Virus record (IMG/VR): IMGVR_UViG_3300035565_000042
Location: 1-64,000 of that record
Strand: one strand, 5' to 3'
Length of the DNA stretch: 64,000 nt
From: a virus
A model generated the notes under the pieces. That model saw only the letters and a program-made list of their open reading frames with translations, was not told the origin of the DNA and did no database searches. Positions 1 to 56,540 of the stretch are shown here, piece by piece. Numbering within the stretch: the first letter of the stretch is position 1; every line of letters begins with the position of its first letter. The position numbers were made by a program, and so were the translations under genes.

Positions 1-2127
1 GGTGCTGCCGAACTGGCTGTAGAGGGAGTCAAAGCATTACTTAATCATGGCGCAAATAAAAGAGCCCGTGCTGAAGCTGTAGGTAAATGGATGAACACAT
101 GGAATTCAACTGATGAGTCTGCAGTTGAATATTCTGGTTACAAGAGAGGTGGATTCCACACGAAGAAAGGAAGGAACGCTGCAGCAAAACATGACAAACA
201 TAAGATCAAGCCGGTTATTCCTCCGACTGTCAATAATGAAACTGCACAACCTGCCGATGGTAATATTCCGACACAAGGAATGCCGATGCCAGGACAACAG
301 GTTCCACAGATACCCGGTGCAGGTATGAAATCAGGTGGCCCAACAGTTGCAAAAGCAAAAATGATGTTAAGAGATAATTCTGCACAGGGACATCCATTAA
401 CTACTAAACAAAAGAAATTCTTTGGCCTTATTGCAGGTGGAGGGAAACCAACCAAACATGCTACTGGCGGTATTGTAGGTAATCCATTATTTCTTCAACT
501 TCAAAAGACTCCGCAAGGATTCGACAAGGGTGGATTCTCAATATCATTTAAGGATGGTGGTATTCATATAAAGCCAGAGAACAAAGGAAAGTTTACTGCC
601 TATAAAAAAAGGACAGGAAAGACAACCACAGAAGCTTTGCATTCAAGCGATCCTCATGTAAGACAGATGGCAAACTTTGCCAGGAATGCTAAGAAGTTTC
701 ATCATGCTGAAGGCGGTCCAATTATTGATACTACATCAAAAAAGACTACAACAGTAGTTCATAGTATTGAGCCACGCAGTATGCTTCCCGCCGAGATTGC
801 ACCTCAGGCCGTAAAAGATGGTATCTTTAAAGGATCAGTAGAGGATCTCTTGAAACTTCCAGTTGAGGAACAGGCAAAGATTCTGCATAATCCCGATAAA
901 GGATATAATGTTACAAGTAAAGCACCAGGGCAATATGAATTCTGGCGTAATGATACGATCAATGCTCAAAAACCAACAAAAGCAATGGATTTTGCAAGAA
1001 AAAGATTTGCTGAAGCTCAGAAGACTAACATTCTAAAAACCAATATTAAACCAGATCTTGTTGCTGAAAGAGCAAAAGGAGGCAAGATAGAAGGTCCTGG
1101 CGGCCCTAAAGAAGATAAGATCGAGATGAGTGCTAAGGATGGATCATTCATCGTTCCTGCAGAGAATTCTGGTGTTGCTATTGGACTTGGTAAGGAATTC
1201 CTTGGATGGAAAGGCGATGAGAGAGCCAAACGTAAGTATTCATCCGGAGGAATCAAAGTAAGTGATGGGGAAGTATTATTCACACCTCAGGAAGTAAATA
1301 TCCTTAAGTATCATGGTGTTGATCTCAATAAACTTGCTCCCAATGCTGATCCTGGCAATAAACTTGCCAAGGGTGGTTATACATGGAATGAAGATAAAGG
1401 TAACTGGGCATGGGACGAGAATGCTGAAGGTGATGATCCGGAATATGCAGATTATCTCAAGAATCAGAAAGCTTCAGCAAGTAATCCAGCAAAAGATCAG
1501 GCTGGTACAACTGAAGATAAGAAAAAACCAGAAAAGACAGCTTTTGAGAAGATCATGGATATCACCCCGGAAATCGGTGGTGCATTACAAGGAGCTGCAG
1601 CAATATCAGGAATCATTAAGACAGGTCATATTCCTGATGTCAATGTAAGCAATACGCTGAAAACTCTTACCAATAACTTGCGTAAGGAATCACAATATGG
1701 ACTTGCTCCCGGGACTCTTGATGCAATGGATATACAGACCGAAAAATCAAGGAGAGATGCTACCAATGCAATTGTTGCTCGCGGAGGGTCCTCATCAGAA
1801 GTACAGTCAGGTATTCTTGGAACTCTTAGTACTACATTAAGCGAAAAGTACAAGACTCAACTTATGGATCAGCAAGAGAAGACCAGCAAAACAAGTTTAT
1901 ATGCCAATGCTGCCATGGGTGAATCCGGACAGGAAATGGATGCTAAGAAGATTGCTCTTGATGCCTGGCTTCGTAGTCAACAGACAAATGCCGGACTTCT
2001 TAATTCTGCAATAGCAAATATCATAGGAGCCCGGAAATATAAAGAAACACAGGAATTCCTTGACAAGACAGGTACAAGTGCTCCATACATAACGATTGGT
2101 GGCAAAACTATTAAATTAGGCAATTAA
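1..2127 (+). CDS. Probable virion ejection/cargo protein (5'-truncated; frame is open from base 1)
   Basis: Frame 1 has no stop from position 1. Contains IHIKPENKGKFT...ANFARNAKK (a motif I recognise from crAss-like virion proteins), a GPGGPKEDKI..DGSFIVPAE motif, repeated xxGG motifs and an Ala/Gly/Gln-rich helical C-terminus. Lies just upstream of the vRNAP gene. Confidence 0.6.
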   Translation, partial: GAAELAVEGVKALLNHGANKRARAEAVGKWMNTWNSTDESAVEYSGYKRGGFHTKKGRNAAAKHDKHKIKPVIPPTVNNETAQPADGNIPTQGMPMPGQQVPQIPGAGMKSGGPTVAKAKMMLRDNSAQGHPLTTKQKKFFGLIAGGGKPTKHATGGIVGNPLFLQLQKTPQGFDKGGFSISFKDGGIHIKPENKGKFTAYKKRTGKTTTEALHSSDPHVRQMANFARNAKKFHHAEGGPIIDTTSKKTTTVVHSIEPRSMLPAEIAPQAVKDGIFKGSVEDLLKLPVEEQAKILHNPDKGYNVTSKAPGQYEFWRNDTINAQKPTKAMDFARKRFAEAQKTNILKTNIKPDLVAERAKGGKIEGPGGPKEDKIEMSAKDGSFIVPAENSGVAIGLGKEFLGWKGDERAKRKYSSGGIKVSDGEVLFTPQEVNILKYHGVDLNKLAPNADPGNKLAKGGYTWNEDKGNWAWDENAEGDDPEYADYLKNQKASASNPAKDQAGTTEDKKKPEKTAFEKIMDITPEIGGALQGAAAISGIIKTGHIPDVNVSNTLKTLTNNLRKESQYGLAPGTLDAMDIQTEKSRRDATNAIVARGGSSSEVQSGILGTLSTTLSEKYKTQLMDQQEKTSKTSLYANAAMGESGQEMDAKKIALDAWLRSQQTNAGLLNSAIANIIGARKYKETQEFLDKTGTSAPYITIGGKTIKLGN

Positions 2128-2138
2128 ATACTATTCAC

Positions 2139-3848
2139 ATGGACGGACAAAATTTAGGAATAAAAGAGGGTATGTCCTTTGTGGAAAACTGGGATAATGA
2201 TATAAATCAGTTATACCAGCGCGAAGAATATAAAGCTCGTATCAATAACGAGCAGGAGAAGAAAGCAGAGTATTATGCAAATCTTCTCAAGCAAGGTCAT
2301 GTAAGTAGTCCTTATGCCGAGTCACGGTTACAAGAGTTCTATAAAGGTCTTAATGGTAAGGTTGCCGACTTTGCTATTAACAATCCTAACTTTACCAATG
2401 ATGTTACTGGTATGCAGAAGTTCAATGAACTTACTGATCAGTTCCTAAATAATCCTATCATACTTGAAGATCAGCAGGTAAAACATGAATTCCAGAAATT
2501 TCAGGATGCAGTTGTTGCTGGAAATATAAGTCCTGATACGTACCATGAAAACATGGAACGGTATAATAATTATATCAATGCAAAACCCGGAGACAATGTA
2601 AGCCCTTATGTATTTCAGAACTTCAAACAACAGGATTTCGATAAGATGACTTCAGAGATTGCCGGAACAATAAAGACAGATCAGTTCGAAAATGTCAAAC
2701 AGGTAGGATATGATTATTACAAGACTACCGATGTGGATAAGCTTTATCCAGTATTACTATCAAGATCGATGGCAGCCGTTCAGGATCCAGAGAAAGCAAT
2801 AGCAATAAACAATCGTTATCAGGCAGCAATAAGTTCCAATCCTGATCTGAAGAACTTGAAGGGATTTGAAAATTCAGTTACCTGGTATGCAAATTATCTT
2901 CAGTCAGCTCTTCCAATAAAAAACATGGAACATGCATGGTCTATGTCAGAATGGATGTCAGGGCAGGGAGAAGGCGCAAATGTAGATTGGTTTGGAGTAA
3001 GTAAACTTCCAAGGATACTTTCATTGTACAATGCTATTGGGCAAAAGAAAAATGCGGATGGTTCTGTAGCACTTGATTCAAATCAGAGACCAATTGTTGG
3101 ATATACAGATCAGGAGATAAGTGCAGATCCTGAAGATATAGCTTTGACTGATTTCGATAAAGATAAAAGGATGTCTATAAATGGTGCAGCTGGTGTTCTT
3201 GTTAAGAATACAAAAACAGGGCAACTTGAACCATTCTCTTTTGCAGGTACTTCAGTAATCGCAGGATGTAATTCTATTGATAAGATTGTTTCCATAAGTG
3301 GAATTCCTTATGCTAAGGTAAATGTATCTTACGGTTCCCCAATAGGAACTGAAGGGATCAATAAAGACAAACCCTTCTATCCAGCCAAAGATGAATGGGG
3401 ATTTCAGACGATGAAAACCCAGATACCTGCCGGCTCGATGTCAGCACTTAACATGACAGGATCAATGTCTGTAGGAACCGGTCAGCAGTATAGTGGTGAC
3501 GTCTATGTCCGGTTAAAAGTAAATCAGAACACAGCCCAGAACTGGAATAAACTTCACAATGGTGAGTCTTATGCAAATAAGGTTTCAACAAGGACCGTTG
3601 AGGATCTTCAGGAAATGGCTAAGGCTAATCCAGCTTCAAGTTATGCTATAAATAAAATTGCTTCCGGAGATATCCCAAACATATCTGGAGTCATGCCGGC
3701 CATAACTGGAAACAATATTGCTAAACGGAATAAATATCTTATTGCCGAACAAACTGATCCAACATCCGGCAAGAAGATAGATATACTTATTGATGCAGAA
3801 ACTGGAATAGTGTGGAAAGATCCTGCAACAGTTAACAAATACAGATAG
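2139..3848 (+). CDS. Probable second ejection/cargo protein, 569 aa
   Basis: Long ORF with helical N-terminus, tightly packed between the cargo gene and the vRNAP gene as in crAss-like gene order; function inferred from position. Confidence 0.5.
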   Translation: MDGQNLGIKEGMSFVENWDNDINQLYQREEYKARINNEQEKKAEYYANLLKQGHVSSPYAESRLQEFYKGLNGKVADFAINNPNFTNDVTGMQKFNELTDQFLNNPIILEDQQVKHEFQKFQDAVVAGNISPDTYHENMERYNNYINAKPGDNVSPYVFQNFKQQDFDKMTSEIAGTIKTDQFENVKQVGYDYYKTTDVDKLYPVLLSRSMAAVQDPEKAIAINNRYQAAISSNPDLKNLKGFENSVTWYANYLQSALPIKNMEHAWSMSEWMSGQGEGANVDWFGVSKLPRILSLYNAIGQKKNADGSVALDSNQRPIVGYTDQEISADPEDIALTDFDKDKRMSINGAAGVLVKNTKTGQLEPFSFAGTSVIAGCNSIDKIVSISGIPYAKVNVSYGSPIGTEGINKDKPFYPAKDEWGFQTMKTQIPAGSMSALNMTGSMSVGTGQQYSGDVYVRLKVNQNTAQNWNKLHNGESYANKVSTRTVEDLQEMAKANPASSYAINKIASGDIPNISGVMPAITGNNIAKRNKYLIAEQTDPTSGKKIDILIDAETGIVWKDPATVNKYR

Positions 3849-3854
3849 AAAATA

Positions 3855-6800
3855 ATGCTTTCAATTGAAGATAAGGGCCCCGATCCAAGCAAAGGTGTCT
3901 CCATAGATTCCTTTAGTTATGGAAATGATATAACAAAGAATGCTCCGGTTGTCTTGAAAAATCAACAGCAACCAGAAACAGACAAGGGCCCTGATCCATC
4001 AAAAGGCGTTCCACTCGATGCACTTCGTCCTGAAAATCCGGAACAATTCCAGTTACCTGATACTGAGGCAAAGACTTCCGTTACTCCTCTTGATCCGAAT
4101 AAAGGATTAAAGGAACGTCAGGATGAACTTGACAAGCAGATTGCAAAACTGAATAATTACAAGGCAGAAATCACAAAGAAACCATTCCTGTCAACAATCA
4201 ATGATGCGTTGTTTGATCATACATTTTCTCTTGGGAATGAAGATGAAAAGAAAAAGAAGATCCAAGATGTAGACGAGACTCTTACAAAACTCACTGCAGA
4301 ACGCCAGACAATAGCAAATAAGATAGCACCTATTACTCCTGAAGTAATGAAGGATATCAATGACAAGACATCCTTTTCCGTCGACAAGAATAATATCTTT
4401 ACTACCAAGTTTTCTGATGCCATTGAGAAATATGGGTTGCCACAGATAAACCGTGCTTATACTGAATACTGGAACCAACAGTTTGAGAAGGATGCCAAGG
4501 ATGATGTGAAGCATTATGAACAGATGGGTGACACCAAACAGATGTTCACTTATAATGCAGTCAAGTATGGAGAAATGCCAACTCTTAATCCTGAAGAGAC
4601 TACAGAAATAAGAACACTTTGGGATAAGATTCGCAACAGTCCGGAATTCAATGGTAAATATTCTACATCTCCGATAACATACGATAACCAGGTTAATGTG
4701 GCAAACCAGATGGTTAAAGAGTTTGTCGATAGTAAACATCTTAATGATGAAAATGTAGATACCAAGCAGAAATCTGATGACTGGATAAAATATTCAAAGG
4801 TCATCAGTTCCATGATGCAATATAATCCTGATAATGGCGCTGTGACAGTTCAGGGACTACAAGCATTTGCCAGGGCCAATACCGGACAGATCAATGACAG
4901 AATATCACAACTTCAGAGCATAGCAAACAATCTCAACACTATTGAGGATAAGTATAACAAGAATCCAGAAAGTAAACCTCCATGGTTTGTAGAGAATGGA
5001 ACACCGGAACAAGCTCAGAAGTCATTCAATAATTACCAGGCTTATAAACAGTATGTCAATACTGAACTTACAACACTACAGAAGACCCAAACACTCAATA
5101 ATGCTATCTATAATTTACCACTCAATAAGAATGCAAAAAAAGAGGTAGGTGCATTTGGGAAGAAGAATGATCCATCGAATATAGATATGCTTGACTTTAA
5201 GGCGGCCGGACTTGATGAATTATCACAAAGTCAGGATATCGTTGACCTTAACAAACGTGTTTATGCCGGAGAACACCTTTCCTGGGGCGAACAGAAGGCC
5301 GTTGAACTTGCGACGATACTCAACACTTCCCTACATGGGAAGACCTTAGAAACGCCTGATTTGACCTTAAAAGGGCCAAGTCTTGGTTTTAAGAATGTAA
5401 CTCCTGCATCACTTACCGGAGATTATCTTTCCGGTATTGATATTCCGCGAGCCAGGGACAATCATGAACTTAAACATCTTTGGCAACTTCCATTTGCAAC
5501 TGCCGGTGAATTAAGTCATGCATATGGATCTATTGCACATATGTTTGACTGGGTTCAAAACAAAATGGAGCAAGGGATAGCAAATATTGCATTCGGAGAT
5601 AAGACAGGAGATAAATGGTATGATCTGAAGAAAAGAGGATTAATACCAAACTATATCGGAATAGGTGGAAATGATGAGACTGGTATGCTCGTTGATATGT
5701 TTAATGAGTTTTCAGAAAAGATGCCAGGACTACCTGTTACATCCGGTTCTCCATTTGCTAATGCCATGTGGTCAGGATATAAATCAACCGTAGATATTAT
5801 TCCTGATATTGGTATGACATTGTTTATGCCTGAAGCTGGAGTACCTAAGATACTTGCTGAACTTGGAGTCAAGTCTTTCGGTAAATGGGCAATGTATCTT
5901 GGTGCTAAAGGGATGATTGAGAAAGCTGAAGAGTCTGAAGAAGGAACTATAAAACAGAAATTAACTGCACCACTCATTGGAGGCCTTGAAGGTGCGGCAC
6001 AAGGATTCATGTACGATGCTCTTGGTATTATGGCATCAAAAGCTGGTTCCTTACTTGCTCGTAAGACCATGCCAAAATTAATGTTTGCTGATGGTTTTGA
6101 AAAGATAGATCCTACCTCAAGAGTATCTGATCTGAAAGGGGAAAACGTACCTATCTTCAAATCTACTGATGAGGCATTGAACTATCAATTAGGTTCCCTT
6201 GGATATTCTACTCTTGTCAATATGGTTTCCTTTGCCGGAATGAATATCATTGATGAATATGCCAGAACAGGAAAGATATCTGCTGAGTCAGGAGTATCAG
6301 GAGCCATGACAGGATTTATGCTTATAGCAAAAGATGCTGGACAGTTACTTACTGCAAAGGCAATGAATATGCTTGTTGTCGCTCCGGATGAGTTTGTATA
6401 CAGACTTTATACAAGCAAGGTTACTTCTGAGCAGATGGCAAAGAAAGCTCAGGATCTTATTCAGGGAGTACACGAAAAAAGGTCAAAGAATGTTAAACAA
6501 GATCTATACCTGGCAAGAGTATGTCAGAACATGGCTGAATTGAAGGGATTACTGGAAGAACATAAGAATGATCCTAAAGCTATCGAATCGATTATACTTC
6601 AGTCTAAACTTGAGAAAGGAACGAAGAAATATATCATCCAGAAGTTAAAAATTGCATCAAAGGAAAAAGCGCAAGAAGGAGCACCATTATTCCCAAAAAA
6701 ACCAAAGATAACTGAAGCTGATGCTGAGTCCATACAGAAACATAATGAAGAGATAAAAGGTAAGTATCCGGACTTATATTCAAATGGATTACTCGAAGTC

Positions 6801-9800
6801 GACAAACAATCCGGAGCTTTTATAGAGCCGGATGCAGCAACACTCTTTGCTATTCATGATCAATTATCAGAGGATATCGACAAGTTAAGCAAACGGAATG
6901 CTCATGATGACTATATCAATCCTGATAAGGATGCCATTGCAAAGATTAATGAACAGTTAAAATCACTTCCAGATACTCCTGAGAACACAAATTCAAGAAA
7001 TGCATTACTCGCGCAGATTGAGACTATCAGGAAGATGCCATCTCCAGAGTTGACAAAGTTATTGAATCAAAGAGTTGCAGTTGAGAACCATCTTAATGAA
7101 ATAGCATCAAATGTAAAACTTCCATTCAACTACAAACTTCCATCTGAGAAACATCAGGAACTTCTCAATCGTGTTGCTACCGGAGAACCGGTTACTGGAA
7201 CCGTAAGTATTCCAGGTCAGGCAATACATAGGATGCTAATTACAATGCCTAATGGAGATCAGGTTAATGCATATCGTGGAACGGCACCCGGCATTGAAGA
7301 AACAAAAGAAGAATTCGAAGAGCGCAATAAACTTGCTCTTGGCGCAGCTCGTTCAAAGACTCCAGTTACTCTAAAGTATATCCCAAAAGCTGAATGGAAC
7401 CCAGATGACAAAGCATTCGAATCATTCGTCAATCCATTTACCGGAGAAGTAGAACACGTACCATACGGAGACAAACTTGATGTCATGGTTGGTGACAAAT
7501 CTATTGGTTCAGTTCAGGTTCATGACTATAGTGAACAACAATTGATGCGATCAAAATTCAACAAGGCAATAGAACTGGCCCAGGCATCAGAGAATGAAAT
7601 AGTGCATAACCTTTCCTTTGATGCAGACGGTAAACCGGAAATGGGAAAGAAGAAAGAGAAGAAGATGCAGAAACTTGTTTCCGACATGGTATCCGGATTA
7701 AGTAATGCATTATCTACAGTCAAGACTGAAGATGTGATACCGTGGCTGAAAGGACAGATCGACAACAATAATAAACTCAAACAACCAGAGAAAGACTTCA
7801 TAAAGAATTTCATTGACAAGAACAAACAGACCATATCAGAAAATGTGATGACAAGAAGGCTCATGGATGCCGGTTTTAAGACTCAGGTTAAAGGTTTTGA
7901 TCCTTCGTCAATGATCCTACCAGAAAATGAGAATCCTGCCTTAAATCAATCCCAGAAGATAGCTGAGAGCCTAAAGACATTCACACCTATATGGAATGAT
8001 ATGTCGAATCGGTATAACCAAAGTCAGGGCCGGCTACAGATGGAGTTTAACCGGATGGCACTTAATGGTGATATCAGTGAGATAACCAACCAGGATACAT
8101 GGAAAGCATGGTTATTAAAACATAGGACTGCTGACGATGTGAATAATGCTATTGTCGATTATCTTATGGATATGCACTTCCCTGTTGCTGTTTCAATGCT
8201 TGACTTTTATCATAGTGTCCGGCCGGTAAGAAAGATTGGTGTATATGTTGAGAAAGGAGTTATCTATACAAAGGATCTTAATCCATCCGAGTCGTATGAA
8301 GATTTCGTAAACAGGTTTGGAAGTACATTGAAAGCAACCGGTATTGATAAGATCAAGGAACTTATTCTTAACCGTAGGAGAGAACAAGAAGAAGCATTCA
8401 AATATGAAAACGCATTAAGTGCTGATGAACTCTACAAAATAAAGACAGAACAATTCGAGAAAGATCTTGACTTACTCTTCAATGTTACTGGAGTTTCAAA
8501 AGATGTGTGGAAACAATATTTCCAGCAGAGAACAAATGAAACAAAGGCTTATGCCAAAGAAGGGGATAAACGTAAAACCGACTATAAGACCTTCGATAAT
8601 CTTATGCGGAACAAAGTATATCGCAGAGGTAAGAAAGGTGATTATCTATGGCGCCAGGGAGACATAATTTTTAATCTTCTCAAAGGTAATGCATCTCCGG
8701 CCGGCAAAGATCCGGAACAGGCAAGTGCTGACATCATAAAGTATTTTACTGAAGGTCGTGATGCAGACGAGGATCATAATGTAGTATTCTCAAATCTTTA
8801 TAAGCTTTCTACAGCTCTTGGCAATCGTGAAGACATAGGAATAGATGGCCGCGATATCAAAGGCGATCATATGACTTCCTTTGAACAGAACAGTAACATA
8901 TTTACCCAGGCAGACAATATACTTGAATCGGCTATAGACAATCCAATAACCAGACTTCACAAAGAGAATGGAGTGCCAATGCAGATCATCATAGTTAATG
9001 GACTGCATAATCTTGATATTAACAAATACAAGAAAGGAACTCCGGCTGAAGATATGAGCATGGAAGATATCTGGGCCACTCAGGTTAGTATGTTTGCAAA
9101 CGGACTTGATACATACCAGCATAGTATCGGTCAGTTTGCTGATAAACCATCTATCTATGTCATAGAGGCACCAAAGGTTACAAATCCTACAGAAGAGCAA
9201 TTCCAGGCATTATATAAGGATCTTCCAAAGAAAGACTTTGATGATGCTGTAGAGTATCTCACCAAAAAATATGCATACTGGCAGGATGATCTATATTCAA
9301 AACTTGCAAAGAATTATGAAGGGGATCATTTTCAGAAGTTGCATAATATGATGAAAGCATTCGTGTACAACTATGCTATGAACACGAAAGCTTCTAATGA
9401 GATATTCTTCGGCGATCTGCATTCATATTCTAATGTTCTAAACCTTGTCAAAAGAGCTGGAAGTTCTAACAGTCCCGGGTGGAATATGAATGAGAATGTA
9501 GAAGGAGGTATTGGTTCTCATGTCAGGGTAATAGTCGTTAATGACAAAGGAATATTCGACGACAAAGGAAATCTTATTACAGACAAGGGAGCTGATGGTG
9601 CAATCTTCATGTCCGGAGCATGGGCAAAGCGGGCCCAGGTATCTCAGGGATCAGTTTACAACAAAGAAGCAGTCTATCCTCAGTTATTATCAATGAAAGC
9701 TGTTGCTTCATGGCTTAGTGATGCAACAAACAAAAGAGGACTTTACAAGGGTAATTTCATTAATGTAGATGCTATATCAGAAGGAACCGGATCTCAAGCA

Positions 9801-50808: not shown

Positions 50809-51381
50809 TTAGCCGTCGATATCTGATGTCTCAACAACTGCAACTGCAGCTTTCTTGAACTGGGATATCCTCAGCTGATCCTTGCCTTCATAGGGCTCAT
50901 TGGTGACGTTCACAATGAATTCCTTCTTCTCGGCAATGATTGCATCCAGATCTTCGATACCGGAACCTTCTGCCATTCCCAGTGCAGCAAACAGCTGGTC
51001 CATGATGCCTTCGCATACGGCTGTGTTTGCAGGATCAGGAATTCTGTTCAGTTCCTTGGATTTCGGGTTGACAGCGCAGGCATAGCCTGATACGTCTGTG
51101 AACTTTCCGCTTTCGATCTCTGCAGCTGAGAGCTTGCTGAATGGTACATAACCTTCCAGGTTGAGCCTGTGGGTTAATCCACCTTTACCTTCAGTGCTGA
51201 CAACTGTTATTGCAAGCTGTTCGCAAGGGTTGGTGTAGTCCGGAAGAGTCTCTTTGAGGGTTCCGTCATAGTTGTGAAACGAATCAGTCGGCCTGAATGA
51301 TACGAGCCTGACTTTGTTGGCACCGGTAGGCAGTTTTGCGAATACCGGGGTCTTGCTCTTGTAAGAAGCGATTTTTGTCAT
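50809..51381 (-). CDS. Paralogue A: 190-aa DUF669-like/OB-fold putative ssDNA-binding protein
   Basis: LPTG.NKVRLV start, VNVTNEPYEGK.Q.RI..F end, acidic tail; about 70% identical to 53402..53974. Confidence 0.5.
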   Translation of the reverse strand: MTKIASYKSKTPVFAKLPTGANKVRLVSFRPTDSFHNYDGTLKETLPDYTNPCEQLAITVVSTEGKGGLTHRLNLEGYVPFSKLSAAEIESGKFTDVSGYACAVNPKSKELNRIPDPANTAVCEGIMDQLFAALGMAEGSGIEDLDAIIAEKKEFIVNVTNEPYEGKDQLRISQFKKAAVAVVETSDIDG

Positions 51382-51447
51382 TTTCTTTCTTTTTGGTTAG
51401 ACAATTTGAAAATACTCATGATAAAATAATTTACTGGCACATATATC

Positions 51448-51505
51448 AAAAAAGACGCGGGGGGATCATTGAGAAGGTTAACTCAATAATCGACAACCCG
51501 CGTCT
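51448..51505 (-). terminator. Long-hairpin intrinsic terminator
   Basis: AGACGCGGG...CCCGCGTCT stem with inner ATTGAG/CTCAAT; T6 follows on the minus strand. Confidence 0.8.
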
Positions 51506-51794
51506 AAAATAAGTCATTGTCTCTGGTCCTCAGGAACGTCTTTCTGGCATTGTTCAGATACCACATCGGACGTGACCTGTCTCACCATTGTGCATAACAC
51601 TTCCTCTGCATTGAATTTATGTACCGTTAACGTTAACGGAACTGCCGTTAAATCTTTATCGGTTGACCGTGTCTTGGTCTATTCCGGTATTTCACCGGTG
51701 TGAAAGTCTAAACAGGCAATTAAACCTGAAATTATGCGACAATAACTCATCGGTTAATTAACCAATAATCGGGAATAAAATAATTTCTTTGCTA

Positions 51795-51956
51795 TTACTT
51801 TCCTCTCTTTTTATGAGGAAACCTGGCACGCATGTTATTTTCTCTTTTACTCTCCTGAGCTGTCATATACTCATGAAGGTCTTTAGCGCCAGATGGCGTG
51901 AATATATGTCTGCTTTTCAGAAAAGCAAACGTATCCTTGTTACTGAGCTTTGCCAT
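51795..51956 (-). CDS. Small basic protein, 53 aa (MAKLSNKDTF...), not in the ORF track
   Basis: Translated by hand; starts 4 nt after the upstream stop. Confidence 0.55.
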   Translation of the reverse strand: MAKLSNKDTFAFLKSRHIFTPSGAKDLHEYMTAQESKRENNMRARFPHKKRGK

Positions 51957-53401: not shown

Positions 53402-53974
53402 TTAGCTATCGATGTCTGAAGTCTCGGCTTTCTTGACTGCGACCTTGCCAAACCTCGAGATACGAAGCTGATCACGTCCCTCGAATGGTTCATTGGTCAC
53501 ATTGACCGTGAAAGCTTTCTTTTCAGCGATGGCATTGTCGAGTGCCTCGATGCCACTGCCCTCAGGCATTCCGAGTGCTGAAAAGAACTGGTCGAGAATA
53601 CCCTCGCAAACCTCGGTGTTCTTGTTATCGATGAGCCTGACCAGCTTGTTGGTTTTGCTGTTGAGCATGCAGGCATAGCCATTGACGTCGATGTACTCAC
53701 CGGACTCAATCTGCTTTGCAGACAGTTTTGAGAACGGAACATAACCCTCGAGATTCAGCCTGTGTGTCAGACCGCCGTTGCCGGCAACACTGACGACTGT
53801 GATAGCGAGTTGTTCGCATGGGTTCTCAAACTCCGGAAGGTTTTCTTTCACCGTGCCGTCGTAGTTGTGAAAGCTGTCTGTGTCCTTGTAGGAAACAAGA
53901 CGAACTTCATTCTGACCGAGTGGAAGTTTCATGAAGACCGGAGTCTTCGACTTGTAAGAACTGATTTTTGACAT
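53402..53974 (-). CDS. Paralogue B: 190-aa DUF669-like/OB-fold putative ssDNA-binding protein
   Basis: Gapless alignment with 50809..51381; visibly more GC/CpG-rich codons than its neighbours. Confidence 0.5.
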   Translation of the reverse strand: MSKISSYKSKTPVFMKLPLGQNEVRLVSYKDTDSFHNYDGTVKENLPEFENPCEQLAITVVSVAGNGGLTHRLNLEGYVPFSKLSAKQIESGEYIDVNGYACMLNSKTNKLVRLIDNKNTEVCEGILDQFFSALGMPEGSGIEALDNAIAEKKAFTVNVTNEPFEGRDQLRISRFGKVAVKKAETSDIDS

Positions 53975-54055
53975 TGTGTCAGCCCTCCTAAGGCTGTGTT
54001 TTTGGTTAGTACTAAAGAAAAAATGTCAAGTACAAAATAACTTCTGTACAATATC

Positions 54056-54477: not shown

Positions 54478-54723
54478 GATTATTATTGGTTAACAGAGAT
54501 ATAATAACTTTCATCCTGTAAGCATTCTTTTTTGGGGCCCCCTTTTGGCAATCAAACACGCCCCCCTGGTCGGTTTCTGTCATAACCACATCAAAAATGC
54601 CAATATTAGGTCAGGGATGCGTTTTTACACAAAAAAAATAATAGGGATGTTAATAAGTAGTTATCTACTTGTGATTGCGGAGTGGATAACTTGTAATATA
54701 TTCGCGAGAAGAAAAGGAAGACA

Positions 54724-55110
54724 ATGGAAGAGAAGGAAAGGAAGTTTGTATATCCAGCAGTAAGGATCAATCAGGTATGGTTGGACAGGGACCACATGAT
54801 ACTAAGAATGGAGACATGGTTAAGGAAGAAAGAGAGAGGGTTCTTGGGTATTTGGAAAGGGAAGTGGTATCTTCAGAGGTTTTGGAGTGAGTATATCATA
54901 ACTGATGGTACAGATGGGATAATAGCAAGTATGAGTCAGTTTCATGCTACGGTATATAAGTCTGTCATATGTGGGAGAGTTGACAGGAAGATAGTATTCC
55001 CGGGGATTGATGGTCCGGCAAGGAGATTGTTTGAAGATGATCCGGAGCAGATAGATGAGAGGGAAAGGATTGGTGATGGTTTAAGCGGGAGGAAACATGG
55101 CAACAAATAA
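54724..55110 (+). CDS. Hypothetical protein, 128 aa
   Basis: First gene of the + block; upstream TATATTCG element. Confidence 0.6.
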   Translation: MEEKERKFVYPAVRINQVWLDRDHMILRMETWLRKKERGFLGIWKGKWYLQRFWSEYIITDGTDGIIASMSQFHATVYKSVICGRVDRKIVFPGIDGPARRLFEDDPEQIDERERIGDGLSGRKHGNK

Positions 55111-55351: not shown

Positions 55352-55398
55352 AAATTATTTTACTTTCGTGGATATTAAAACTGAAAAAAGATTTGTTT

Positions 55399-55758
55399 AT
55401 GGGAATAGATAATCAACAGATGGGAAGTAAGAAGGCAGAGTTATATTATGTAAAGACCAGGGGGATCAGGTATACCGAGCAGGAAGCATCAGATCATGGC
55501 ATCAAGAGAGTGTACAACTACACCAGCGAACTTGAGTTCATGAATGATGAAGACATAGATGGCTGGGTAAAGGGATTGTATGATCCGCGGCATAGTGAAG
55601 CTGTACTGGTAGAGAGCGCCATAAAGACGATCAATGGAGTTCCCTTGTACATTATGACCTGTATAGTATTCATGTCCATTGAGGGATGTAATCTGTATTA
55701 TCTGAGATACCAGAGTGATTTCAAGGAGAACAAGGGATTTGCACATTTACTGAACTAA
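55399..55758 (+). CDS. Hypothetical protein
   Basis: ORF downstream of the AATTATTT-TACTTTCG element at 55353-55368. Confidence 0.6.
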   Translation: MGIDNQQMGSKKAELYYVKTRGIRYTEQEASDHGIKRVYNYTSELEFMNDEDIDGWVKGLYDPRHSEAVLVESAIKTINGVPLYIMTCIVFMSIEGCNLYYLRYQSDFKENKGFAHLLN

Positions 55759-55787: not shown

Positions 55788-56081
55788 ATGAGTGAAGAGA
55801 AGGAAATTGCACCAAGTAAACCGATATTATTGGAACTGGACTCTATTCGTAAGGATCTGTACGAACTTTCAGATTGCAGATCATCTTTGGAACAGATACT
55901 TGATCGTTTGCAATCGAATGATAATTTAAACAATCAGTTAAAAGAGGTACCTGACACTGCTAAAGAGAAGGACTGGGATCAGATGTCTATAAACGAGAAA
56001 GTAACATCTCTCAGAAAAATTTCATCCATACTCTCTCATAAGTTTGGTGAGCTTCACCAGCGGATAGATAGCGCGATTTGA
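55788..56081 (+). CDS. Coiled-coil hypothetical protein, 97 aa
   Basis: Heptad pattern. Confidence 0.6.
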   Translation: MSEEKEIAPSKPILLELDSIRKDLYELSDCRSSLEQILDRLQSNDNLNNQLKEVPDTAKEKDWDQMSINEKVTSLRKISSILSHKFGELHQRIDSAI

Positions 56082-56116
56082 TCAGTAGCAAGAAAATTAT
56101 TATTCTTTCGGGATAT

Positions 56117-56240
56117 ATCGAATTTGATAAAGCATACTGTTTTTGGTTAGACAGCAGTCAGGGGCCCGGCACTAAGGTAGCGAAGTGAGACATTGGTTGA
56201 CGACAACATATTAAAGTCCGGGCCACTGACATATTTTTTG
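56117..56240 (+). ncRNA. Candidate trans-acting small RNA
   Basis: ORF-free gap; upstream imperfect promoter-like motif (56095-56110); seed TTTTTGGTTAGACA; long stem GTCAGGGGCCCGG...CCGGGCCACTGAC (56157-56230) with two inner hairpins; T6 tail. Ends are approximate. Confidence 0.55.
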
Positions 56241-56266
56241 ATTACAAGAAAAAAAGTTTAACTTTG
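56237..56266 (+). promoter_or_regulatory. Canonical Bacteroidota sigma-70 promoter
   Basis: TTTG-N18-TAACTTTG upstream of the ORF at 56306. Confidence 0.75.
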
Positions 56267-56305
56267 ATCCTCGATTGATCGATCGTTAAACTAAACTTAA
56301 GCGTC

Positions 56306-56482
56306 ATGACAAAGAAAAAAGATCCAGGCGAACTAAAGAGGAAACCGAAAGGTTCAGTAGTTCCGGTGCCAAAGAAAGAAACCAGTGCTTCTAAAACAAA
56401 GAAAGTTTCAGTATCAGCACCTAATCCTGATGGTATCCTTACGCCAAAGAACAAGGCTCATGTACATACCTTGAGTGAGTAG
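56306..56482 (+). CDS. Small Lys/Pro-rich basic protein, 58 aa (MTKKKDPGEL...), not in the ORF track
   Basis: Translated by hand; has its own promoter and terminator. Confidence 0.65.
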   Translation: MTKKKDPGELKRKPKGSVVPVPKKETSASKTKKVSVSAPNPDGILTPKNKAHVHTLSE

Positions 56483-56495
56483 CAATGCGTTGAAC

Positions 56496-56540
56496 AGCCC
56501 GGAAAGAGTATATTCTGCCGGGCTTATTTTTTTATTTTTT
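56496..56540 (+). terminator. Intrinsic terminator
   Basis: AGCCCGG...CCGGGCT followed by long T runs. Confidence 0.8.

Follow-up and report, generated by a model that had tools for sequence, protein, structure and literature searches.

A probable structured RNA element in an intergenic gap of a crAss-like phage genome, with predicted antisense pairing to the leader of a conserved gene family

The stretch of DNA considered here (the window) comprises 64,000 nucleotides (nt), the first 64 kilobases (kb) of an 83,393-base-pair (bp) single-contig phage record, IMGVR_UViG_3300035565_000042 of IMG/VR. Our subject is a 224-nt gap between genes at 56082-56305, bounded by small plus-strand open reading frames (ORFs) upstream and by a lysine-rich (K-rich) ORF downstream. 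As the original prediction for this locus had said, the gap is free of ORFs: there is no plus-strand ORF of at least 40 amino acids (aa) in 56082-56305, and no plus-strand ATG in 56095-56240. We conclude that the gap very probably holds a conserved structured RNA element, and that there is about an even chance that this element is a trans-acting antisense RNA that pairs with the leader of a family of genes for 190-aa proteins. The parts of the element are as follows.

56093..56110, plus strand: recurrent upstream motif beginning AAATTATT..., a candidate promoter or operator recognized by its recurrence in the genome
56137..56154, plus strand: 5' hairpin, the proposed seed, with the 12-mer TTTTTGGTTAGA at 56140-56151, which is complementary to leader boxes
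56157..56230, plus strand: long-range GC stem; every member of the family has one, with differing arm sequences and interiors of 30-61 nt
56234..56239, plus strand: U-run, a terminator-like tail 3 nt after the stem

When the region is folded as RNA, the 5' hairpin has 6 bp, and its loop in the minimum free energy (MFE) structure is UUGGUU (56143-56148). The long-range stem is branched and GC-rich, encloses a weakly structured interior of 48 nt, and is followed by AUA and then by six U residues. Folding thus confirms the small hairpin, the long branched stem at 56157-56230, and the T tail that had been read from the sequence. A simple terminator scan, which allowed loops of 3-8 nt, did not list the stem because its interior is 48 nt long. 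The fold of 56095-56245 reaches −39.9 kcal/mol (z = −3.56), and none of 200 shuffled sequences folds as well. ARAGORN found no tRNA or tmRNA gene in the window. Rfam was searched at the gathering score over the window, at E ≤ 10 over 55950-56350, and at E ≤ 0.1 over five member loci; the window and the member loci gave no match and 55950-56350 none of relevance, with the C4 family included among the non-matches. The element belongs to no Rfam family and is so far undescribed; its members come from a subclade of environmental crAss-like phages, and the sample names of the relatives suggest habitats of the sediment or wetland type.

Close relatives of this phage were sought by megablast and blastn against phage records and by an exact 25-mer scan of IMG/VR, and none was found; the neighboring 341-aa protein has a best non-self match of 51% identity. 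Distant relatives were gathered through homologues of this 341-aa protein (32-51% identity), and alignment searches with the 190-aa family or the 341-aa protein yielded no relative in a prokaryote genome collection. One distant relative, G001, has an intergenic unit at 7767-7941, located by scanning that genome for the motif AATTATT. In this unit, the AATTATT motif precedes a short hairpin containing TTTGTTAGAC, after which a long-range stem encloses 61 nt of interior and a T-run follows. The core TTG(G)TTAGA with a long-range stem after it then served as the descriptor for a scan of ~450 kb of relatives, in which 7 of 19 core matches had a stem. These represent six distinct sites in five lineages (this phage, G001, L022, L025, and L030/L035), i.e., five further loci from four other lineages. 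The same descriptor found a stem at none of 82 core matches in 1.01 megabases of unrelated control loci, which had been picked for containing AATTATTCTTTT...TTAGAC. In IMG/VR, a scan for the promoter motif plus TTAGAC listed at least 118 loci, among which only G001 itself had the stem. Two further IMG/VR scans for the core with arms (26 and 21 loci) gave 13 loci flagged under a loosened stem filter, with interiors mostly of 82-105 nt, and none of the 13 had the family layout when inspected by eye.

All six members, folded individually, adopt the same two-part structure, with z scores from −2.8 to −4.7. The arms of the long stem are completely different in sequence between members, yet they are still paired. 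The MFE is better on the plus strand in every member, by 3.7-19.6 kcal/mol, with 4-8 G·U pairs on the plus strand versus 0-2 on the minus strand; this advantage points to an RNA with the orientation of the genes around it. The 12-mer TTTTTGGTTAGA is identical in this phage, L022, and L025, and is found in a one-base-shorter form in G001 and L030/L035. It occupies the loop and upper stem of the hairpin in three members and is largely paired in the MFE structure of L030/L035. For the small hairpin, 22 of the 24 stem cells of alignment A4 pair; two of the four pairs change on both sides (C-G/U-A and G-C/C-G), and L035 has a G·U pair. A second hairpin with a TTGGTT loop in this genome, at 78175, was dropped, being inside an open reading frame.

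The original prediction held that plus-strand words from the gap recur just upstream of minus-strand start codons, such that a plus-strand RNA would be antisense to the corresponding mRNAs. All six of these word matches are exact and recur inside 56138-56153, and their distances to the ATG (8, 22, 12, 14, 8, and 14 nt) fit the predicted range of about 9-35 nt. The two longest matches precede paralogues A and B, both on the minus strand, which are 72% identical to each other and make up the 190-aa family in this phage.

51390..51403, minus strand: leader box of paralogue A (gene 50809-51381), whose 14 nt are complementary to 56140-56153; 8 nt separate it from the ATG
53997..54009, minus strand: leader box of paralogue B (gene 53402-53974), whose 13 nt are complementary to 56138-56150; 22 nt separate it from the ATG

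The box shared by the leaders is GTCTAAC(C)AAA. Over the whole genome and both strands, all six complements of at least 10 nt to 56135-56158 are in the sense orientation and no more than 60 nt upstream of an ATG, and five of the six contain the core TAACCAA. Shorter complements fall in leaders far less regularly (two of seven nine-mers and two of 24 eight-mers). Since the matches of at least 10 nt all lie in leaders, in excess of chance, the leaders share a real box. A typical 146-nt window matches two to three leaders at 9 nt, and the 9-nt (50602) and 8-nt (34982) matches carry no weight because matches of this length are at background level. Outside coding sequence, the gap holds the only inverted copy of the box. 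One of the six matches of at least 10 nt, itself 10 nt long, precedes a structural-block gene for a 383-aa protein, beyond the 64-kb window. The leader of that gene, at 68117-68136 on the plus strand (G000, i.e., whole-genome, coordinates), is nearly identical to that of paralogue A over ~20 nt (TAACCAAAAA...GAAAGAAAATG), and the likeness suggests that the A-rich portion of the box may act as a strong leader sequence in general.

Predicted duplex energies narrow the list of partners. Once corrected for accessibility, only paralogue A (−12.5 kcal/mol, the best) and paralogue B (−7.9 kcal/mol) stand out among 95 leaders. A 41-aa gene (−5.1 kcal/mol) and a 436-aa gene (−3.9 kcal/mol), whose leaders contain the 11- and 10-nt matches, are at background. 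The antisense matches proposed in the original prediction are thus upheld for A and B, whereas the 11- and 10-nt matches are background on energy and the two shortest are background on length. The sum of the three best duplexes is unusual against shuffled sequences (p = 0.0025) and, to a lesser degree, against random genomic 24-mers (p = 0.04). Duplexfold runs with the whole 116-nt RNA were dropped, as they gave unrealistically long duplexes.

The relation between seed and leader could be compared in two genomes, this one and G001. Across the whole G001 genome, the seed has just one complement of at least 12 nt. It spans 14 nt of the leader of gene 2318-2896, the orthologue of A and B (64% identical to A, E = 2e-87). 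For each of the three leaders (14 nt for A, 13 nt for B, and 14 nt for the G001 orthologue), the longest exact complement in the respective genome is the 5' hairpin of the element. The two partners differ between the genomes by a matched single base: the G001 box is one C shorter, and the G001 seed is one G shorter. Other leaders do not follow the same pattern. The G001 orthologue of a 151-aa gene has a variant of the box, AACCAAAA, in its leader, which the G001 seed does not match; the G001 homologue of the 383-aa gene has no box; and neither the 436-aa gene nor the 41-aa gene has a homologue in G001. Because complementarity is kept for the A orthologue and not for the other G001 leaders compared, the conserved partner is the 190-aa family rather than a broad regulon. 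Gene 2318-2896 is duplicated, as it lies in a 4,953-nt terminal repeat. The direct terminal repeat of G001 (L011, L015), ~4.95 kb at 1-4953 and 89192-94144, also holds other box-bearing genes, giving two copies of each per genome.

The 190-aa family has 40 relatives at 44-84% identity and is more conserved than its neighbors. Paralogues A and B have no PHROG match, A has no Pfam match, and the family profile has no sequence relative in the PDB. There is one weak lead: Atlas TM values of 0.51-0.56 and a weak Pfam match in 2 of 28 members (best E 0.0016) suggest that these proteins may be DUF669-like, which we treat as a lead only. DUF669 proteins bind single-stranded DNA.

From the fold, the conserved architecture, the strand bias, and the complementarity kept with the orthologous leader in a second genome, we infer that an RNA is made, that it pairs with its partner in vivo, and that the effect is repression. 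The putative RNA would be a plus-strand transcript of roughly 100-145 nt, either transcribed from a AAATTATT-type motif of its own or formed by the 3' end of the small-ORF operon that precedes it. It would begin with a 5' hairpin displaying a conserved U/G-rich sequence (TTTTTGGTTAGA in this phage), followed by the long-range GC stem and usually by a U-run. The hairpin would base-pair with the GTCTAAC(C)AAA box in the 5' leader of the 190-aa family, here A and B. Pairing 8-35 nt before the AUG of an mRNA that lacks a Shine-Dalgarno sequence would most likely hinder ribosome loading, leading to repression at the level of translation or of mRNA stability.

Several observations weigh against this antisense reading. 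The comparison of seed and leader rests on two genomes only, since the other members are on contigs of 1.9-4.6 kb that do not include the target gene. The complementarity and the co-variation would look no different if a double-stranded DNA motif were simply present in an inverted copy. The best duplex has −20.0 kcal/mol, a value also reached by 24-mers that are shuffled (6%) or drawn at random from the genome (8%), and the pairing would be shorter if the mRNA of A starts inside the box. Covariation in the small hairpin is modest, with 25 of 500 shuffles reaching the score and a +3 register scoring equally, and in the folds of G001 and L030/L035 the core is partly or wholly within the stem rather than in the loop. 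The promoter-like motif is missing in two lineages (L022 and L025), and the T-run is missing in two (L022 and L030/L035). Among other relatives, G002 keeps a box, ATGTCTAAC, in its A-family leader without having a clear element (two G002 leaders have the box), and G005 has an A-family gene with neither box nor element. Finally, the intergenic DNA of this phage holds further 13-15-nt motifs in both orientations: a 15-nt copy of the AATTATTTTACTTTC motif at 72587-72601 on the minus strand versus 55353-55367 on the plus strand, and a 13-nt DnaA-box-like word at 54659-54671 on the plus strand versus the leader of gene 79031. Inverted regulatory words are therefore not unique to the element, and for this reason we keep a DNA-level reading in view.

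Within G002 (L018) there is a pair of hairpins at 54640-54725 on the plus strand, the first with 5 bp around a TTTAGT loop and the second with 23 bp, that folds better on the plus strand (−37.5 kcal/mol) than on the minus strand (−23.1 kcal/mol) and has 11 nt complementary to the G002 leader bearing ATGTCTAAC. We did not count it as a member because a 128-aa open frame encloses it and its duplexes rank unremarkably; it may be a diverged counterpart of the element.

Other explanations of the element have to account for the same observations. A DNA-level one is that a regulator of the phage binds GTCTAAC(C)AAA as double-stranded DNA, with the A-family units, in which the box is placed between promoter and ATG, and the gap, where it is inverted and downstream of the AAATTATT motif, forming one transcriptional regulon. 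The complementary words would then simply be the same double-stranded motif, and their co-variation would be expected. The box lies 29-44 nt downstream of a AAATTATT-type motif in A, the 436-aa gene, the 41-aa gene, and the gap (by hand count); the AATTATTTTACTTTC motif and the DnaA-box-like word are likewise found in both orientations between genes; and G002 keeps the box in two leaders with no clear element. An operator does not predict, however, that the flanking arms pair through two-sided changes, that the plus strand folds better through G·U pairs, or that a conserved long-range stem adjoins the motif, and the G001 seed fits the box variant of the A orthologue and not AACCAAAA, i.e., the fit is gene-specific rather than consensus-like. 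We consider this explanation quite improbable. An unlikely but weightier candidate is that the element acts in cis, as a terminator or stability structure at the 3' end of the small-ORF operon, with the core kept for another reason such as a protein-binding site on the RNA and its match to the leaders serving no pairing between RNAs. In L022 and L025, no more than ~15 nt and no promoter-like motif lie between the upstream stop codon and the start of the element; a T-run follows the stem in three of five lineages (this phage, G001, and L025); the genome has other terminator-like hairpins with long interiors (e.g., 51454-51504, with a 35-nt interior); and the duplex energies are unexceptional. 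For plain termination, though, a conserved 12-mer and a 5' hairpin apart from the stem would be superfluous, and two lineages lack the T-run. Such a role also leaves unexplained why, in both genomes tested, the best complement to the A-family leader genome-wide is in the element, and why the one-base difference of G001 is matched. Both the operator and the cis-acting 3' end are made less likely by the bias toward the plus strand, by the pairing of the flanks, and by the match in G001 that is specific to one gene.

The original prediction itself went further than the antisense RNA for one gene family that we favor, proposing a single small RNA (sRNA) that serves as an off switch for several early genes (A, B, and the 41-, 436-, 151-, and 160-aa genes). 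Core AACCAA boxes do precede at least seven genes, the 11- and 10-nt matches in the 41- and 436-aa leaders sit 12 and 14 nt before the ATG, and the gap is among the best 0.3% of sliding 146-nt windows when judged by its two leaders matched at 12 nt and among the best 1.3% when judged by its five at 10 nt. We nonetheless hold such a switch to be rather unlikely: matches of 8-9 nt are at background, the duplexes of the 41- and 436-aa genes are no better than those of doubtful ORFs, the 151-aa orthologue in G001 keeps a box that the G001 seed does not match, and only A and B stand out once accessibility is considered. Nor is a restriction to early genes supported, as the box also precedes the 383-aa gene in the structural block, whose G001 homologue lacks it. 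Two functional labels attached to the proposed targets were not confirmed: the 436-aa protein, labeled a GHKL ATPase, matches only PHROG families without known function and has no Pfam match at E ≤ 0.01, and the protein labeled lysozyme-like has no Pfam match at E ≤ 0.01. A layout like that of lambda PR'-tR' would make the element a leader, with a constitutive promoter, a short terminated RNA, and antiterminator-dependent read-through into the late block, the seed match being incidental. The promoter-like motif, the length of ~110-140 nt, the strong stem with its T-run, and the position upstream of the K-rich ORF, exonuclease, terminase, and portal would suit it. The next gene, however, has its own conserved Bacteroidota-type promoter, which is also found in relatives with no adjacent element; other ORFs separate the element from the late block in G001 and L030/L035; two lineages have no T-run and two no promoter-like motif; and the conserved complementarity would have no explanation. 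A role of this kind seems very unlikely. We give almost no credence to the notion that the gap is the remnant of a minus-strand leader, its box being a seventh sense copy. On the minus strand, an ATG that opens an 11-codon ORF does lie 4 nt beyond the box, but no promoter-like sequence precedes it on that strand, where the long stem lies instead; in G001 and L022 no ATG follows the box on the minus strand, and the 11-codon ORF is not conserved; and every member folds better on the plus strand.

The antisense reading leaves two possible origins for the RNA, and the upstream motif bears on one of them. The original prediction had described an imperfect promoter-like motif ahead of the hairpin. 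It is a real recurring motif, with nine copies of AAATTATT in the 83.4-kb genome, of which six are intergenic and all six of these are co-oriented with the local genes. The AATTATT(C/T)(C/T)... sites are at 55352 and 56094 on the plus strand and at 51786, 51432, 49112, 41972, 52497, 36739, and 31432 on the minus strand. The copy at 56094 is identical at ~28 of 34 positions to the region upstream of gene 55399 (hand count). In G001, AATTATT is the top enriched 7-mer upstream of genes, being present in 17 of 46 upstream regions, and the ATG is often 26-29 nt beyond it. As a promoter in the strict sense the motif fared less well: by eye, the AAATTATT region does not match what we take to be the Bacteroidota consensus (−33 TTTG, −7 TAnnTTTG). 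AATTATT(C/T)(C/T), which precedes genes on both strands of this phage, may be a clade-specific promoter or operator. A second ORF-less unit of this phage, 51448-51800 on the minus strand, runs for ~330 nt from a AAATTATT-type motif to a terminator and lies just upstream of paralogue A; near its start there is a palindrome, GGTTAATTAACC, that contains TTGGTTAA.

The element has a constant genomic setting. It is always downstream of, and on the same strand as, a conserved small ORF, and upstream of a K-rich ORF or the 341-aa gene. The corresponding neighbors in this phage are listed below.

55399..55758, plus strand: conserved small ORF, 119 aa, which marks the syntenic neighborhood of the element; similar ORFs lie upstream of the element in L007, L022, L025, and L035 (translations compared by eye)
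55788..56081, plus strand: 97-aa ORF, the fourth and last of the small ORFs upstream of the gap; its transcript could also terminate at the stem of the element
56306-56482, plus strand: K-rich ORF, 58 aa, downstream of the gap

The K-rich ORF, its promoter, and its terminator are kept in every distant relative compared (L005-L009), where they lie upstream of the 341-aa homologue; nothing like the gap is directly upstream of the promoter in these relatives. The promoter consists of TTTG, 18 nt, and TAACTTTG at 56259-56266, and the terminator is a GC hairpin at 56496-56524. TAACTTTG fits TAnnTTTG, which we take to be the Bacteroidota −7 consensus. The TTTG is at 56237-56240 and comprises the last bases of the U-run of the element, so the tail may also serve the next promoter as its −33 element. 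With its own promoter and terminator, the K-rich ORF resembles a strongly expressed single-gene unit. On a larger scale, the genome has an ORF of 4,820 aa, and its genes form a block on the minus strand (23426-54583) and another on the plus strand, from 54724 on, that contains an exonuclease-like gene, the large terminase, the portal, and the major head protein; we read this gene layout as that of a crAss-like phage. A 123-nt direct repeat at both ends of the genome (G000 1-123 and 83271-83393) indicates either a circular assembly or short terminal repeats.

If the element is an antisense RNA, its mode of action would be most like that of c4 (P1/P7), CI (P4), and sRNAs derived from 3' untranslated regions (UTRs). 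The c4 antisense RNA of P1 and P7 and the CI RNA of P4 are small structured phage RNAs that come from within an operon transcript and whose exposed loops pair with boxes in a leader, blocking expression. Like these RNAs (Rfam C4), the element would be a phage-encoded structured RNA and is predicted to pair with the leader of a phage gene. It differs in matching no C4 model in Rfam, in its fold, and in belonging to a phage with a Bacteroidota-type host, whose mRNAs have no Shine-Dalgarno sequence. In addition, c4 and CI act downstream on their own transcript, whereas the partner gene of the element is 2-5 kb away on the opposite strand. CpxQ, SroC, and DapZ exemplify 3'UTR-derived sRNAs, which depend on Hfq or ProQ and are found in enterobacteria. 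The element resembles them in that its 3' end and terminator can also be those of an upstream mRNA (L022 and L025) and in having a short conserved seed upstream of the terminator stem; in contrast, some of its members carry a promoter-like motif of their own. In Bacteroides, sRNAs of the GibS and MasB type are Hfq-independent, chromosomal, and metabolic, and a single-stranded loop pairs with A-rich start regions that lack a Shine-Dalgarno sequence. The predicted pairing of the element is likewise near such a start, but the element is phage-encoded and has no Rfam match. The 6S RNA of lambda PR'-tR' has a similar layout, with a promoter, a short terminated transcript, and then the late genes; it requires an antiterminator and has no target in trans, and the gene downstream of the element, unlike the lambda late genes, has its own conserved promoter. 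Among crAss-like phages, phi14:2 produces abundant non-coding transcripts from intergenic DNA near early genes, with a function that its authors describe as undetermined (Drobysheva et al., bioRxiv 10.1101/2020.03.07.982082). As described there, those RNAs are long, come from another lineage with a Cellulophaga host, and are not presented with a seed or target, which sets them apart from the element.

The seed of the element and the leader of its conserved partner form a concrete pair that is open to tests by compensatory mutation, and the element itself is a new RNA family to annotate in metagenomic phage genomes. To our knowledge, almost nothing has been reported on post-transcriptional gene control in crAss-like phages, and we know of little on the regulation of translation on Bacteroidota mRNAs that lack a Shine-Dalgarno sequence. 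It is possible, and we offer it tentatively, that in this subclade a dedicated RNA sets the dose of a conserved, possibly single-stranded-DNA-binding (DUF669-like) protein. Produced together with, or later than, the small regulatory ORFs that head the packaging block, such an RNA would couple the replication phase to the switch to packaging.

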